The position numbers and the translations under genes were made by a program. DNA of 11,399 bases from a virus (Duplodnaviria > Heunggongvirae > Uroviricota > Caudoviricetes), in IMG/VR virus record IMGVR_UViG_2645727593_000020. One strand, given 5' to 3'. Of the stretch, positions 47-11,399 are shown one piece after another. How positions within the stretch are numbered: position 1 is the first letter of the stretch; every line of letters begins with the position of its first letter. The notes beneath the pieces are model-generated. The model ran no database searches. It was not told where the DNA came from and was given only the letters and a program-made list of their open reading frames with translations.

Positions 47-203
47 TTCTTAACAGGATGTCGCTTAAGCGAAATCTTAGTTAAGACGCTTTTACATGAT
101 ACCATTGATAAACATGCATTTTTCATTATAAACAGTTAGTTATATGTATCACTAGTGTAGTCAAGTGCAGCCATAAACATGCTGTGTGGGCAGATTGTGG
201 ACA

Positions 204-1133
204 CTACTTATTTCCCTGTCCAATCTTACCCGCAACTGCCTCGGTAAGCTTTACTAAGGTTTCAAGTTCATTTTTGTCTAATTTTCTTGCTTCAATAATT
301 TCAGTAGTCTGCCCTGATTCTAGTTTTCCAACTCTTGAGCTAAAATTAATTTTATCCAGAAGGTCTATCATATCGATATCTTTCTGGCTAGCCATTACAA
401 GCTTTATAATGGCATAGCTTTCCTCACGTGAACGTTTTATTGCCTCGTAATAGCGAAACTCATCCATCGTAACCCGATATTGCTTCAAAAAGAAAAATGC
501 GATTAACTCCAAGAAAATCAACACGCCAAAATTAGGGAGAAGATACATTACCTTGGTTACCGCATCATCCTTAGCATCAATTACATGTGATTGAGAATAG
601 AAGAAACCTAATCCAACTATTGCAAAACAAACACCGACTAATAAATAAAGACTACCGCGAGAATATATGTTTTTCGCAAGACCTTCAGAGCTATTAATCA
701 AACCTTTAAGATAAAAATCCAGAGATTCATCTTCATCAGCAGCAGCCCTTTCCTCTTGAGCCTTCTTGAGTAGTTTTATCTCATTTATAATATCGACAAT
801 ATTAAACATCGATGATTTGTCGACTGAATCACTCCCTGTAATTCTCATAAACATTCTTTGGATTGGAGACACACCATAGATAATGGTGTAAACGATTACA
901 AATGACACTGCGAATATTGACCTGATAAAGCTCGGCAAATGTGTAAGATCTGCTCTCGCACTGGGAAATAAATAATAAAAGGTTGAGTCTAATATCCCTG
1001 TAGCAAAAATTACATTTGCAACTAGAAAGACTGCACCTATCTCAACTAAATTATAAAAACCACGAGTGCGTACCCTAATGACTTTGGCCTCGGTCATTCT
1101 TGGAGGTGTTTCGATGGTTGGCTCACTCATCAT
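204..1133 (-). CDS. Hypothetical integral membrane protein, 309 aa, four predicted transmembrane helices with an internal two-fold architecture; function unknown
   Basis: Long ORF in visibly AT-rich DNA. AGGA lies 7 nt upstream of the ATG at 1133. Hydrophobic helices at about aa 26-48, 69-88, 161-179 and 195-216; charged, helix-prone segments at aa 100-160 (KLLKKAQEERAAADEDE) and 217-309. The start overlaps the stop of the upstream integrase fragment by 11 nt. No catalytic motif recognised. Confidence 0.65.
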   Translation of the reverse strand: MMSEPTIETPPRMTEAKVIRVRTRGFYNLVEIGAVFLVANVIFATGILDSTFYYLFPSARADLTHLPSFIRSIFAVSFVIVYTIIYGVSPIQRMFMRITGSDSVDKSSMFNIVDIINEIKLLKKAQEERAAADEDESLDFYLKGLINSSEGLAKNIYSRGSLYLLVGVCFAIVGLGFFYSQSHVIDAKDDAVTKVMYLLPNFGVLIFLELIAFFFLKQYRVTMDEFRYYEAIKRSREESYAIIKLVMASQKDIDMIDLLDKINFSSRVGKLESGQTTEIIEARKLDKNELETLVKLTEAVAGKIGQGNK

Positions 1134-1464
1134 ATAATCCTGTTAAATTAGAAATAGGGTTAAGAGTTACAGCTTCTTCTAAATGATCTGGTGCAAAATG
1201 AGCGTATCTCATGGTTTCCCTAATGTTAGAATGGCCCAAGATTCGTTGCAGTACTAAAATGTTCCCACCATTCATCATAAAGTGACTCGCAAATGTATGA
1301 CGTAACACATTCGTTTTTTGCCCTTCAGCTAACTCTATATCGGTCAGAGCGAGCATTTTCTTGAACTCCTGATAGCAGGGGTGGAACATTTTTCCCTGTA
1401 AAGGAGCCAACTCGTCATATAGCCACCGAGGGATCGGTACTGTACGATTCTTCTTTCCCTTGGT
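1123..1464 (-). pseudogene. Tyrosine recombinase (phage integrase family) C-terminal fragment, 5'-truncated
   Basis: Translation ...[24 protein letters not shown]...NVLRHTFASHF...ILGHSNIRETMRYAHF... carries the C-terminal catalytic-domain landmarks of tyrosine recombinases (GKGxKxRxVPL-like patch, LRH box, GHS, RY with the presumptive nucleophilic Tyr). The N-terminal part with the box I arginine is absent. There is no ATG; the ORF track starts it at a TTG (1410). The upstream limit of homology (about 1464) is judged by eye and is approximate. Confidence 0.6.
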
Positions 1465-1473
1465 TTGGGAGAA
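1448..1473. repeat. Left recombination site of the invertible segment (gix/hix-like 12-2-12 site), hybrid in composition
   Basis: TTCTTCTTTCCC-TT-GGTTTGGGAGAA. The right half plus core is an exact inverted copy of the half-site at 3334..3347 (TTCTCCCAAACC-AA) and resembles hix/gix half-sites as recalled (TTnTCnnAAACC). The outer left half (TTCTTCTTTCCC) lacks the AAACC element. Confidence 0.55.
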
Positions 1474-1812
1474 GCGGCTAAAAGGAATGTAGGGACAGGG
1501 GCGAATCAGATACCTGATATGGGTAGCTTCACGCTTTCTGTTTCAGGTACTGGATATCAAAAATTTCCATCAGGTTTTATTCTTCAGTGGGGCTCAATCG
1601 GCGCACCAGGCATTGCACAGGATGTAGTAACCCATTTCCCGATTGCATTTCCAAACAGATGTCTGCGTGTTTTGGTCTCACAAGACTACACACCAGATAG
1701 CGGGGCTGTTGGTTATATTGCCTGTGCAGGTTTTAGTCCCGACCCGGTTAAATTTATATCCAGAGCCAGTACTCCTGGCCTCGGCGCTTCATTTTTAGCG
1801 TTAGGCTGTTAA
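1462..1812 (+). CDS. Tail-fibre C-terminal variable segment (Sv-like), no own start codon; orphaned from any constant N-terminal part in this window
   Basis: The frame is open from 1423 (a stop precedes it at 1420..1422) with no ATG before an internal Met. The translation GLGE...[15 protein letters not shown]... resembles phage fibre C-terminal domains. The frame begins exactly in the recombination-site core encoding GLGE, which the minus-strand Sv' also encodes at the right site. Confidence 0.5.
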
Positions 1813-1833
1813 TTTAGCTATATGGAGTGAAAA

Positions 1834-2274
1834 ATGAATTACATATATTCCGCGACTACAAACTCTTTCTATCCGCTGGAGATGAAAGAGGATTACACTC
1901 AAGCTGACTCATGGCCAGATGATGCTGTTGAAGTTGATGAGCAAGTGTATATTGAGTTTTCCGGATTACCGCCGAAAGGAAAAATCCGTATCGCTGGAGA
2001 AAATAGTTTTCCTGCATGGACTGAAATTCCACCACCAACACATGAGGAACAGATTGCTGCAGCCGAACTTGAAAAGCAGCAACTGATTAATCAGGCCAAC
2101 GATTATATGAACAGTAAACAATGGCCTGGTAAAGCGGCTATTGGTCGTCTGAAAGGTGAGGAACTGGCGCAATATAATTTGTGGCTGGATTATCTGGACG
2201 CACTGGAACTGGTCGATACTTCCGGTGCGCCAGATATTGAATGGCCTACGCCTCCGGCAGTTCAGGCCAGATGA
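1834..2274 (+). CDS. Tail-fibre assembly chaperone (Tfa family), 146 aa
   Basis: GGAG lies 7 nt upstream of the ATG. The C-terminus ...LVDTSGAPDIEWPTPP... matches the conserved Tfa C-terminal motif (xDTSxAPDIxWP) of lambda Tfa / Mu U / E. coli TfaE-type proteins. It lies directly downstream of the fibre variable segment. Confidence 0.8.
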   Translation: MNYIYSATTNSFYPLEMKEDYTQADSWPDDAVEVDEQVYIEFSGLPPKGKIRIAGENSFPAWTEIPPPTHEEQIAAAELEKQQLINQANDYMNSKQWPGKAAIGRLKGEELAQYNLWLDYLDALELVDTSGAPDIEWPTPPAVQAR

Positions 2275-2848
2275 CATCCGGCGCGGTGCTGGTATCTGTT
2301 GCCGTCACCGCGTCAATGTAATCCAGCGCAGCGTTAAGTCGGGCGGTTTCTGCCTGCGTCAGATTCCGTCCGGCCTGCAATTTCAGCTGAATCAGACTAA
2401 TGGAAGCCATTGCATTATCAATCAGTGACTGACGCTGTGCTTCTGCCGCGCCTACTGCGGCGCTATGCTGTGCCACAGTATCTGTTACCCATTTCTCACC
2501 ATCCCATTCATCGTATGGCGTTAACGGGGCGATAGTGGTTGTATTTTCAGGATAATCACCCGGAGCTGTGATTTCTTTCGATTCTCCTGTTTCTGTGCTA
2601 TAGATGATTTCACCGCGATGGTCTGGCACATATTCCCATGAGTTAAAATCTGCAGAACGGCAGATTGCATAACCAGCTTTATGTGTAACTGGCGCATCTA
2701 AACAAGAACATGCCGGGATACCGACGCCAACCGCAAGATATTCAGTTGACGTGGAAATATATTCCCGTGTTTCACCATCGTAGTTATAAACGGTAACATC
2801 CCCTGCCTTTGTTGCAATAAGCTCACTATTTAATATTGCTTTATGCAT
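2246..2848 (-). CDS. Tail-fibre assembly chaperone, alternative copy (Tfa'), 200 aa
   Basis: The C-terminus ...TATDTSTAPDVIWPELPEA carries the same Tfa motif. The start ATG overlaps the TGA stop of the upstream Sv' (TGATG on the minus strand at 2846..2850). The 3' end overlaps the plus-strand tfa convergently by 29 nt. Confidence 0.8.
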   Translation of the reverse strand: MHKAILNSELIATKAGDVTVYNYDGETREYISTSTEYLAVGVGIPACSCLDAPVTHKAGYAICRSADFNSWEYVPDHRGEIIYSTETGESKEITAPGDYPENTTTIAPLTPYDEWDGEKWVTDTVAQHSAAVGAAEAQRQSLIDNAMASISLIQLKLQAGRNLTQAETARLNAALDYIDAVTATDTSTAPDVIWPELPEA

Positions 2849-3345
2849 CAGGCTGACCTCACGATATAGTTAAATGCAATATTACGCGGACGCGTTTCTG
2901 AGGCTGCGGCACCTAAACCAGCCACTGATTGTTTATATGTTTTAAAGGTTCCATAATCCGGTGCTGGTAATCCGGCATCGTTTGTGTTTCCTCTTTTGAT
3001 AATGTCAGTGCCACTATTTACCCAGCTTTCATCAAAATAGAAATTAATCGTTGCATCAGTCACAATCGTGGATCTTGACGGTAATCCATGAGCATGATCC
3101 TCCGTTGCATACCCCTGAATACTTAAAATAGAGCGACCTGTATCAATCCCCCGTCCGTCATCCCAGCCACGAATAAACTCACCACGTAAATCAGGCAATT
3201 TATTTGCCGGATAAGCCTTTGCCAGTTCCGGGTATTCTTCAGCAGAAAAAGCTGCACCATTGCATTTCAGCCAGCCTGTTGGCGGTGTGGCTGAAGGCCA
3301 CGGAACAGGGACGCCAACAGGTAATGCAGAGCCTTCTCCCAAACC
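2848..3345 (-). CDS. Tail-fibre C-terminal variable segment, alternative copy (Sv')
   Basis: The translation ...VGLGEGSALPVGVPVPWPS...YPELAKAYPANKLPDLRGEFIRGWDDGRGID... is typical of Mu S / P1 S-type fibre C-terminal domains. The ORF-track N-terminus (3346..3444) runs through the recombination site into the invertase start region and is not counted as fibre. The real coding part begins at the crossover (GLGE at 3334..3345). Confidence 0.6.
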   Translation of the reverse strand, partial: GLGEGSALPVGVPVPWPSATPPTGWLKCNGAAFSAEEYPELAKAYPANKLPDLRGEFIRGWDDGRGIDTGRSILSIQGYATEDHAHGLPSRSTIVTDATINFYFDESWVNSGTDIIKRGNTNDAGLPAPDYGTFKTYKQSVAGLGAAASETRPRNIAFNYIVRSA

Positions 3346-3359
3346 AACGTTTAAGAAAA
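3334..3359. repeat. Right recombination site of the invertible segment (gix/hix-like)
   Basis: TTCTCCCAAACC-AA-CGTTTAAGAAAA: two imperfectly inverted 12-bp half-sites around a 2-bp core. It shares 14 bp (TTGGTTTGGGAGAA on the opposite strand) in inverted orientation with 1460..1473. It sits about 55 bp upstream of the invertase start. Confidence 0.6.
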
Positions 3360-3413
3360 TGTAGTTTTCCCCCCTAGCTGGCATCATTTGGGCTTTTGCA
3401 TGAGGGAAAACAA

Positions 3414-3992
3414 ATGCAGGTTGGCTATGTGCGCGTATCAACAAATGAACAAAATACCGCGCTACAGCGTGACGCGCTGGAACGGTCGGGATGTGAGCTA
3501 ATTTTCGAGGATAAAATCAGCGGTAAATCGACAAACAGGCCAAGGTTAAATCGCGCACTCAGGCAACTTAATGCCGGTGATACTCTCGTTGTCTGGAAGC
3601 TCGACAGGCTCGGGCGTAGCATGCGCCATCTTGTCTCTATGACTGAAGAGCTTCGCCAGCGAGGGGTTAATTTCAGAAGCCTGACCGACAGTATTGATAC
3701 CTCAACCCCGATGGGGCGATTTTTCTTTCACATCATGGGCGCTCTTGCAGAAATGGAACGCGAGTTAATCGTCGAACGAACCCGCGCCGGGCTGGATGCA
3801 GCCCGGGCACAAGGCAGGATCGGAGGTCGTAGGCCGAAGCTGACGCCTGATGAATGGGCTCAGGCTGGCCGGTTGATTGCGGCCGGAGAATCCCGACAGC
3901 GTGTTGCACTGATTTTTGATGTGGGCATATCGACGCTGTATAAAAAATTTCCGGCGACAAATCCCGTTGTGTCAGCCACCGGCGAACCCTGA
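3414..3992 (+). CDS. Serine-recombinase DNA invertase (Hin/Gin/Cin/Pin family), 192 aa
   Basis: From ATG 3414 (GAGGG 6-7 nt upstream): MQVGYVRVSTNEQNTALQRDAL...GDTLVVWKLDRLGRSMRHL...RSLTDSIDT...MGRFFFHIMGALAEMERELIVERTRAGL...GRIGGRRPKLT...STLYKK. It has the active-site Ser near position 10, the resolvase catalytic core and a C-terminal helix-turn-helix, colinear with Gin/Hin. The ORF-track start at 3396 is 6 codons longer and less likely. Confidence 0.9.
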   Translation: MQVGYVRVSTNEQNTALQRDALERSGCELIFEDKISGKSTNRPRLNRALRQLNAGDTLVVWKLDRLGRSMRHLVSMTEELRQRGVNFRSLTDSIDTSTPMGRFFFHIMGALAEMERELIVERTRAGLDAARAQGRIGGRRPKLTPDEWAQAGRLIAAGESRQRVALIFDVGISTLYKKFPATNPVVSATGEP

Positions 3993-10420: not shown

Positions 10421-10639
10421 ATGATGCACTGCCCGCTATGTCAGGATGCAGCACACGCACGATCAAGCCGGTACCTGAGCACTGAAACGAAAGAGCGCTA
10501 CCACCAGTGCCAGAACATCAACTGCGGTTGCACTTTCGTCACCCACGAGAGCCTTGCTCGTTTTATCGTGAAGCCAGGAGAAATTGAACCCGCCCCACCC
10601 CACCCGTCTAAATACCAACAACATCAGCTCTGGCTTTAA
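10421..10639 (+). CDS. ogr: Zinc-finger late-gene transcriptional activator Ogr, 72-73 aa
   Basis: MMHCPLCQDAAHARSSRYLSTETKERYHQCQNINCGCTFVTHE...IVKPGE... has the CxxC...CxxxxC zinc-binding pattern of P2 Ogr / P4 Delta. The start is at ATG 10421 or 10424, preceded by AAGGAGAGGGAAG. The 104-aa ORF-track version (from 10325) overlaps the D 3' end and is rejected as the real start. Confidence 0.85.
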   Translation: MMHCPLCQDAAHARSSRYLSTETKERYHQCQNINCGCTFVTHESLARFIVKPGEIEPAPPHPSKYQQHQLWL

Positions 10640-10643
10640 ATCA

Positions 10644-10664
10644 AAGGCCTGCTTTGCAGGCCTT
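10644..10664. terminator. Bidirectional stem-loop terminator shared by ogr (+) and the convergent minus-strand ORF
   Basis: AAGGCCTGC-TTT-GCAGGCCTT is a perfect 9-bp stem with a 3-nt loop. It is followed by CTTGTAT on the plus strand and by a T-rich stretch on the minus strand. It lies between the ogr stop (10639) and the minus-ORF stop (10677..10679). Confidence 0.55.
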
Positions 10665-10676
10665 CTTGTATCAAAC

Positions 10677-11399
10677 TTAGATTGGTAATGAAAAAGCTAT
10701 CGCCTTGCAGATATGTTGCTTTGTTAACGCAGGATGTGTTGAAGCAAAAAGCGATAAAAAGCTTTTAGCTTCAACCGAATCATCATTAAGCGAAATATTA
10801 TCTTTGATGAATGGATGAAGTGCGATTCCAGCGCTCATAGATAACGGCACATAGTTGATGAATATATCTTCTTTTGTGAGACCTAGCTGGTTTGCTTGTG
10901 CTTCAAATGAATTAGCATCTAAATAATCACGTATACGTTCTTTGGCCTCTGGTCGGAGTCTCGATTCTTGACGCGGCAGAGAAAGCATCTTATCAATATC
11001 TCCCCATGAGATAGGAACCTCAAAATAGCCACCACCTTCTTCCTCTGGAGGTGCCGGGAAATTCACATAAAAATAGTTTTTTTGCTGTGTAGGGTCGTTC
11101 ATGGACTGACGATGATAGTTATAAATACTTCTAATACGGTTGGCCTTGTTATGATGCCGAGCATTTCGAATAACAAGCATCATTAATAATTCAGGTTTCA
11201 AATACCAGTCAGGCTCTAATCCATTGCTTTGCATGTTGTCATACAAATTATGAAAAGCATTAAGTTGTGTATTCAGGCCCGATTCTAAATTGCCAATTGC
11301 TTCAGCACGATCAATAGCCAACAAACGCTGTAGTGACCAGTTAGACTCTAATAAAACCCGAAAGGCCTGTGCAAGATCTTCAAAAGAGTGGGAAAGCAT
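10677..11399 (-). CDS. Hypothetical protein, at least 240 aa, AT-rich accessory gene; 5' end may extend beyond the window
   Basis: Long minus-strand ORF running to the window edge in visibly AT-rich DNA, convergent to ogr. Contains an R-x4-H patch (VIRNARHH, aa 78-83) of the type seen in HEPN-like nuclease folds, and an acidic/Gly patch PPEEEGGG. No confident family assignment. Confidence 0.5.
   Translation of the reverse strand: MLSHSFEDLAQAFRVLLESNWSLQRLLAIDRAEAIGNLESGLNTQLNAFHNLYDNMQSNGLEPDWYLKPELLMMLVIRNARHHNKANRIRSIYNYHRQSMNDPTQQKNYFYVNFPAPPEEEGGGYFEVPISWGDIDKMLSLPRQESRLRPEAKERIRDYLDANSFEAQANQLGLTKEDIFINYVPLSMSAGIALHPFIKDNISLNDDSVEAKSFLSLFASTHPALTKQHICKAIAFSLPI

Follow-up and report, generated by a model that had tools for sequence, protein, structure and literature searches.

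The DNA analysed here, a window of 11,399 nucleotides, ends in a gene of 723 bp (240 codons and a stop) that is encoded on the minus strand and runs convergently with ogr, in agreement with a preliminary description of this DNA. The ATG of the gene forms the final three bases of the window, and in the matching sequence of E. coli EPEC E2348/69 an in-frame TAA lies two codons upstream of it. This stop rules out a continuation of the gene beyond the window, so the earlier view that it extends past position 11399 was wrong. The RefSeq start of the corresponding protein, WP_000948614.1, is the identical ATG, and the N-terminus ML(S/T)HSFEDLAQ is common to homologues from several phyla. The GC content of the gene is 0.394, as against 0.552 for the tail module and 0.537 for ogr, which bears out the claim that its composition is unlike that of the tail genes. 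The ORF is under purifying selection, with a dN/dS of 0.12 in the comparison of the E. coli and Citrobacter copies. The features of the locus are collected in Table 1.

Table 1. Positions of the features discussed, numbered from the first base of the 11,399-nt window.
Feature	Position	Strand	Basis or remark
Left att core copy, TTAGTTAAGACGCT, in the duplicated rplS 3' end	77-90	+	Junction alignment
Second AT-rich cargo gene, 309 aa, GC 0.37	204-1133	-	Hydrophobic, membrane-like stretches
Prophage deletion remnant	1123-3992
Integrase gene without its N-terminus	1123-1473	-
Cin/Gin-type recombinase gene	3414-3992
ogr-type late-gene activator, last phage core gene before the cargo gene	10421-10639	+	RefSeq annotation
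Perfect 9-bp GC-rich hairpin in the spacer between ogr and the 240-aa gene	10644-10664	.	Folding energy
Complete CDS, 240 aa and stop	10677-11399	-	WP_000948614.1, E2348C_RS15525, RefSeq 'hypothetical protein' (EPEC E2348/69)
C-terminal alpha/beta region	10680-11099	-	Residues 101-240; proposed sensor or oligomerisation part
N-terminal helical, HEPN-like domain	11100-11399	-	Residues 1-100; predicted helices 2-26, 31-58, 69-81, 92-99
Second Rx5H, R90...H96	11112-11132	-	Residues 90-96
R78-N-A-R-H-H83 motif, CGA AAT GCT CGG CAT CAT	11151-11168	-	Residues 78-83; candidate RNase active-site motif

The prophage insertion at rplS

In E2348/69, the window runs from yfiB to the start codon of the 240-aa gene, about 205 bp short of rplS. 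The genes occur in the order 309-aa hypothetical, truncated integrase, tail-fibre pieces with an invertase, sheath, tube, E, E', tape-measure, U, D, ogr and finally the 240-aa gene. The 240-aa gene is part of an 11.5-kb insertion that sits at the rplS 3' end and is bounded by a 14-bp direct repeat. The left copy of the repeat lies in a duplicated rplS end, and the right copy of TTAGTTAAGACGCT is found at the true rplS stop, about 206 bp past the end of the window. The preliminary description had proposed to seek attR by comparison with an empty site; K-12 supplies such a site, with just 75 bp separating yfiB and rplS. Bases 1-93 of the window match all E. coli genomes. Its last 1.1 kb matches 17 of 5426 complete E. 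coli genomes, EPEC E2348/69 among them, at 99.8-99.9% identity, and the 240-aa gene itself is likewise present in 17 of the 5426.

Since the att core copies enclose the gene, it lies inside the inserted DNA, and since this repeat-bounded insertion is absent from K-12, the gene is prophage cargo and not chromosome. The preliminary description had also considered flanking island or chromosomal DNA as its source. A gene of the neighbouring chromosome or of an older island, or a spurious ORF, would owe nothing to the prophage, and the Citrobacter copy, which adjoins rplS with almost no phage genes left, could be read in this way. However, the gene is not conserved core chromosome in prophage-free strains, as the 75-bp gap of K-12 demonstrates; the att core repeat encloses it in E. 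coli and in Citrobacter alike, and in P2-like viral contigs it is linked to ogr. A spurious ORF is likewise at odds with a family that spans several phyla and with the dN/dS value given above. We regard both chromosomal origin and a spurious ORF as excluded, the chance of either being negligible.

The annotation of the prophage remnant lists no genes for head, baseplate, lysis, replication or immunity. An integrase gene lacking its N-terminus abuts a partial tail-fibre gene, next to which lie oppositely oriented tail-fibre-assembly genes and a gene for a Cin/Gin-type recombinase, and this part of the window is a deletion remnant. The assembly genes together with the recombinase look like an invertible tail-fibre segment. 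Just inside the left att copy is the 309-aa gene, which shares 8 bp with the 3' end of the truncated integrase gene; the product of the 309-aa gene gave no match to PADLOC models. We also considered whether the 309-aa and 240-aa genes form one split system. This was rejected, since a homologue of the 309-aa protein occurs at none of the loci compared that carry relatives of the 240-aa protein, and no neighbour family is common across their contexts.

The ogr of the window is similar to the B gene of phage 186 and to the ogr of P2-like Yersinia phages. A spacer of 37 bp separates it from the 240-aa gene and contains the hairpin AAGGCCTGC-TTT-GCAGGCCTT, with folding energies of -15.4 and -16.8 kcal/mol on the two strands (z about -4); none of 200 shuffles folded as well. 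It was not called in a consensus terminator scan because its T-runs are imperfect. Of the bidirectional terminator proposed earlier, the strong hairpin in the spacer stands, whereas the scan did not confirm it as a terminator; that it is a terminator shared by ogr and the 240-aa gene is likely, and plausible rather than proven. On the other side of the gene, just outside the window, there is a terminator with an 11-bp stem; within the 205 bp upstream of the gene the insert supplies a strong terminator for rplS. No sigma-70 consensus promoter was found in these 205 bp. About 110-125 bp past the window end, a tandem direct repeat, GAGTGTCCA-TA-GAGTGTCCA (positions 17205-17225 of the extended locus, L001), is situated between the start of the gene and the rplS terminator that the insert supplies. 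The repeat may serve as an arm-type integrase site of attP or as an operator of the cargo gene.

Morons of the Hendrix type have their own promoter and terminator and an atypical composition, and are absent from related phages. The 240-aa gene has hairpins on both sides and a GC content of 0.39 against 0.55, and the 205 bp upstream of it gave no sigma-70 consensus promoter. The earlier suggestion that it may be a moron or accessory gene is supported by its location inside an att-bounded insertion, its presence in only 17 of 5426 E. coli genomes and its occurrence elsewhere in the ogr-proximal slot.

The protein family and its conserved motif

A word-indexed search of 5.8 billion proteins returned 190 relatives of the 240-aa protein, nearly all of them 237-245 residues long and all unnamed. 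With an exhaustive HMMER profile search, only 154 clusters at 50% identity were recovered from 1.84 billion representatives. A scan of one genome per species gave 28 family loci, with hosts in Gammaproteobacteria, Alpha- and Betaproteobacteria, Planctomycetota, Bacteroidota, Bdellovibrionota and others. In all gene copies checked the GC content was 0.38-0.41, regardless of host. The family is rare, patchy and widely transferred. Its links to phages are through prophages and IMG/VR contigs; a tblastn search of 50,697 sequenced phage genomes with the 240-aa protein found no homologue.

The 240-aa protein matched no model of Pfam, NCBIfam, PHROG or PADLOC (PADLOC-DB 2.0.0). Ten distant relatives gave no match in Pfam, and no consistent match to Pfam or PADLOC was seen among 62 family members. 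Three members matched a PADLOC Cas13b model weakly (best E 0.005), and as a rescan of 10 divergent members gave no localisation of these matches we take them as a hint only. The label 'DUF2612', carried in UniRef by one Shewanella homologue, was unsupported by Pfam scans. Profile searches against all PDB sequences returned no HEPN protein, the matches being at chance level (SmtB, for instance). The HEPN-like reading of the preliminary description therefore gained no profile-level tie to a recognised HEPN family through Pfam, NCBIfam, PHROG or the PDB, and from PADLOC only the three Cas13b matches. HEPN families are often mutually undetectable by HMMER. In a literature search by accession, WP_000948614 was named in no paper.

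That reading had been based on an RNARHH patch fitting the minimal Rx4-6H signature, with the caution that so short a motif could arise by chance. The caution was justified for the bare pattern, which occurs in 74% of shuffles of the 240-aa protein (RNxxxH in 3%) and is not above chance; its conservation, in contrast, is. In an alignment of 62 sequences reaching down to 17% identity, R78 is the sole invariant residue, and N79, H82, H83, R14, E18, D30, E33, N37, H50 and D54 are each at least 90% conserved. The motif takes the forms VRNALVH, LRNALYH and LRNAVHH in the most divergent members, so that the common denominator across the family is a hydrophobic residue followed by R-N-x3-H (phi-R-N-x3-H). 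As judged from the alignment, no feature of the family is more conserved than the R-N-x3-H motif. A second Rx5H, R90...H96, lies in and after the loop following the main motif; it is invariant in close relatives and not in the broad family.

Members of the HEPN superfamily share a conserved Rx4-6H in which N, D or H directly follows the R; they have an insert between helices 2 and 3 and an acidic residue in helix 2, typically as Ex3[KR], and their RNase activity is metal-independent, with a composite active site formed by a dimer (PMC3710099). In the 240-aa family, the corresponding motif is R78-x4-H83, with R78 invariant, H83 at least 90% conserved and the similarly conserved N79 as the polar residue after the R. 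Acidic residues of helix 2 are represented by E33 and D54, both at least 90% conserved and both in predicted helix 2, and not in the Ex3[KR] form. The prediction also places an Rx3E (R14-E18) in helix 1 and a gap, at residues 59-68, between helices 2 and 3. Predicted helix 3 ends within the motif, and H82 and H83 fall in the loop after it; by this predicted secondary structure the motif occupies the canonical HEPN position.

An AlphaFold2 model built from 58 sequences reached a pLDDT of 94.3 and a pTM of 0.91. Foldseek searches of the model against the PDB and BFVD returned nothing at E<=0.001, and no recognisable relative was found for the C-terminal ~140 residues (101-240). HEPN toxins are the closest named fold matches, and they score no better than generic helical bundles. 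We conclude that the N-terminal part is HEPN-like by its motif, the predicted position of that motif and a compatible fold, and that no profile or fold search proves homology. As a hypothesis, the HEPN-like assignment of the preliminary description is supported by the most conserved residues being R-N-x3-H, by their place at the predicted end of helix 3 and by the conserved acidic residues of predicted helix 2.

The conserved residues H50, D54, E18, E33 and H82 could also form a metal site or serve other chemistry. The protein may then be a helical protein without nuclease activity, whose cluster of R, N, H, D and E residues binds a metal or nucleotide or mediates protein contacts, in a role such as anti-defence, prophage or host regulation, or small-molecule enzymology. 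We consider this unlikely, since it leaves unexplained the exact phi-R-N-x3-H with its polar residue after the R at the predicted end of helix 3, and since anti-defence would have no obvious use in the integron cassette and the non-phage defence islands in which family members reside.

Genomic contexts of the family

Six P2-like contigs of IMG/VR carry the gene at one end, in convergent orientation to ogr. Among these contigs ogr is 57-100% and the cargo gene 67-100% identical, and the diverged copies come from contigs of 18-37 kb. In another P2-like prophage, located at the ybjL site, the gene and gpD are convergent. Atlantibacter has the gene in a 186-like prophage, where int precedes it by 134 bp and a duplicated 3' fragment of rplS follows at 140 bp. 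This slot is on the other side of attP, and two viral contigs have the same arrangement. In Morganella the gene directly follows an integrase gene. Phage 186, P2-like Yersinia phages and the Erwinia phage EtG matched the ogr gene only.

Cargo genes are well known in P2, with old, tin and fun/Z as examples (PMC9122126, PMC13586616), and the 240-aa gene is, like them, accessory and AT-rich and placed in one of the variable slots that P2-like phages have. As far as the accessible parts of these sources go, the defence hotspots of P2 are A-Q, within and downstream of the tail genes, and int-A (PMC13586616, PMC9122126), and int-att is a minor one holding 3% of systems (PMC13586616). The Atlantibacter arrangement corresponds to this int-att hotspot, whereas the window and the six viral contigs use a slot between ogr and att that is not named in the accessible part of that account (PMC13586616).

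At the rplS site of Citrobacter, a 2.6-kb islet is left between two copies of the att core (L037, 10001-12401; also L038-L042). It contains only the 240-aa gene (90% identical), a 93-aa scrap of an integrase and a gene for a 334-aa trypsin-like protease, the protease domain of which matches defence-associated models (RT-Protease_XI at 2e-16, LmuA and HamA). Since the islet retains both att-proximal cargo genes, both have outlived the phage.

The family extends to other mobile elements. A lambdoid prophage of Enterobacter hormaechei carries a member between a DNA methylase gene and dinI, in the accessory region that runs from the replication genes to Q. In the superintegron of V. parahaemolyticus, a member forms a single-gene cassette of ~940 bp between attC repeats (L049, 8784-9850), in an array that also holds ParE, acetyltransferase and HEPN_RES-type cassettes. 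A two-gene Vibrio cassette was considered and ruled out, an attC repeat separating the family member from a gene for a 261-aa protein. In Mesorhizobium DNA, a member adjoins a Tn3 transposase. Across 50 loci there was no conserved partner gene. The gene is a self-contained cargo unit of the DNA flanking attP of P2-like phages that has also been captured by other mobile platforms.

These contexts also bear on whether the protein is a nuclease toxin of conflict or addiction, which would stabilise the mobile element by post-segregational killing or exclude competitors, with an unrecognised small RNA, a tiny ORF or autoinhibition as its antidote. Such a toxin would account for a gene that stays intact while the prophage decays, in E. 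coli as in Citrobacter, and it would agree with HEPN toxins being the closest named fold matches; the ParE toxin cassette in the same integron array also fits TA-like modules. However, the 50 loci have no conserved neighbouring ORF and no MNT-type partner, and the Vibrio cassette consists of this gene alone between two attC sites. Retention in a remnant that does not excise would be equally expected of a defence gene that benefits the host. An addiction or conflict role therefore appears to us quite improbable.

Several members are located among genes of known defence systems. One adjoins a Type ISP R-M enzyme, and in Aeromonas a member is flanked by a DUF2806 gene and the gene for a Type IV restriction enzyme (mREase_IV). 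In Rhizobium, homologues of 31-33% identity lie between a pair of HTH and CapP-like peptidase genes and bovA of Borvo, which is directly downstream (4e-148). The member follows the HTH and CapP-like M78 peptidase genes by 14 bp (L020, 8610-12872; also L021-L023). This may represent a regulated multi-gene unit, which is absent in the case of the enterobacterial solo genes. In three genera of Rhodobacterales, homologues of 26-27% identity are placed just upstream of ietA-ietS (7e-143 and 2e-262); these loci are L025 (9875-14441), L026 and L027. Among 119 neighbours at 21 genome loci, strong PADLOC matches included Type I and IIG R-M, PD-T7-4, CARF, WYL and MADS, an enrichment that is qualitative because it has no matched background rate. 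The earlier nomination of the gene as a defence candidate is thus supported by sequence context: homologues occupy cargo slots of prophages and an integron cassette, and some have R-M, Borvo or IetAS genes as neighbours.

Proposed function and relation to known systems

The known protein most like the 240-aa protein in its setting is HepS (STM14_3211; PDB 9OIJ, 9OIK), a solo HEPN abortive-infection protein of the Salmonella prophage Gifsy-1 (PMC13043305). HepS is an anticodon nuclease that exists as an inactive tetramer; a phage tail-tip protein opens the tetramer, which then cuts tRNA anticodon loops (PMC13043305). Both proteins are encoded by a single accessory gene of a prophage, without a partner, are ~200-240 residues long and have an Rx4H motif. 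The solo character of the 240-aa gene is apparent from the lack of a conserved neighbour in 50 loci, the single-gene Vibrio cassette and its occurrence in both P2-like and lambdoid prophages. In the lambdoid prophage, the family member is found in the corresponding accessory region, which runs from the replication genes to Q. The HepS entries 9OIJ and 9OIK were absent among the fold matches listed, the family profile matched no PDB sequence, and the LT2 Gifsy-1 record has no ORF with R100 and H105. HepS may nevertheless serve as a working model, by analogy, in which an inactive oligomer is triggered by a phage protein to cleave RNA.

Other HEPN systems are more distant. HepT-type toxins of HEPN/MNT pairs (SO_3166, PDB 5YEP; 8XDJ) differ in that the 240-aa gene is without an adjacent MNT nucleotidyltransferase; no such antitoxin gene was found beside it, where the neighbours are ogr and rplS, or at the other loci. 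The 240-aa protein also has an extra C-terminal part of ~140 residues and shows no sequence-profile similarity to these toxins. The lactococcal AbiD/F, AbiJ, AbiU2 and AbiV proteins and Esos are similar in being standalone HEPN-like effectors on a mobile element. Models of Pfam and PADLOC for systems of the AbiD/F, AbiJ, AbiU2 and AbiV type gave no match in 62 family members. Esos is a defence system of a V. cholerae integron cassette (bioRxiv 10.1101/2024.07.02.601686), which it resembles in concept one family member that is likewise a single-gene integron cassette.

Based on these comparisons, we propose that the gene encodes a standalone HEPN-type RNase, a prophage-borne effector of abortive infection analogous to HepS, and we put the chances of this at about even. 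The proposal builds on gene integrity, purifying selection, the att-bounded cargo status and the conservation and predicted position of the motif, together with the solo-gene architecture and the defence-type neighbourhoods. RNase activity, oligomerisation, trigger, target and anti-phage phenotype are what we infer by analogy. The P2-like prophage integrated at the 3' end of rplS and has decayed to a tail module and two att-proximal cargo genes. Under this proposal, the protein would be made in the lysogen from its own promoter, the hairpins insulating the gene on both sides, and would rest as an inactive oligomer. Two R/H motifs would be brought together by a signal of phage infection, which the C-terminal part may perceive as a sensor or regulator. 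The active enzyme would then cut RNA (tRNA, rRNA or mRNA) without metal ions. Translation would stop and the infection be aborted, protecting the clonal population and the resident prophage.

Single-protein prophage defence candidates of the HEPN type are known, and what is new here is an unnamed family, not a new kind of system; we class it as an unnamed addition because the literature search by accession found it in no paper. More tentatively, and with somewhat less than even confidence, we suggest that these proteins form a family, so far undescribed, of HEPN-like nucleases that act alone in abortive infection and have a C-terminal sensor of novel fold. A lineage of P2-like phages would have carried them for a long time in the slot between ogr and attP, and they would have moved as solitary genes, across several phyla, into lambdoid prophages, integron cassettes and defence islands.

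As the family has no model in Pfam, NCBIfam, PHROG or PADLOC 2.0.0, annotation built on these libraries cannot recognise it. We consider the gene a good anti-phage candidate, a function we infer from its sequence and surroundings, and one that is easy to test with one 723-bp gene and two point mutants. The high-confidence model is without a full-length structural neighbour, and a solved structure would therefore probably reveal a new regulation of the HEPN active site. In Citrobacter only the att-proximal cargo genes outlasted the decay of the prophage, which suggests that selection keeps these genes. If the prediction holds, a compact, single-gene, phage-borne immune effector would be added to the HEPN repertoire, and the DNA on either side of attP in P2- and 186-like phages would be a place in which to seek such cargo.
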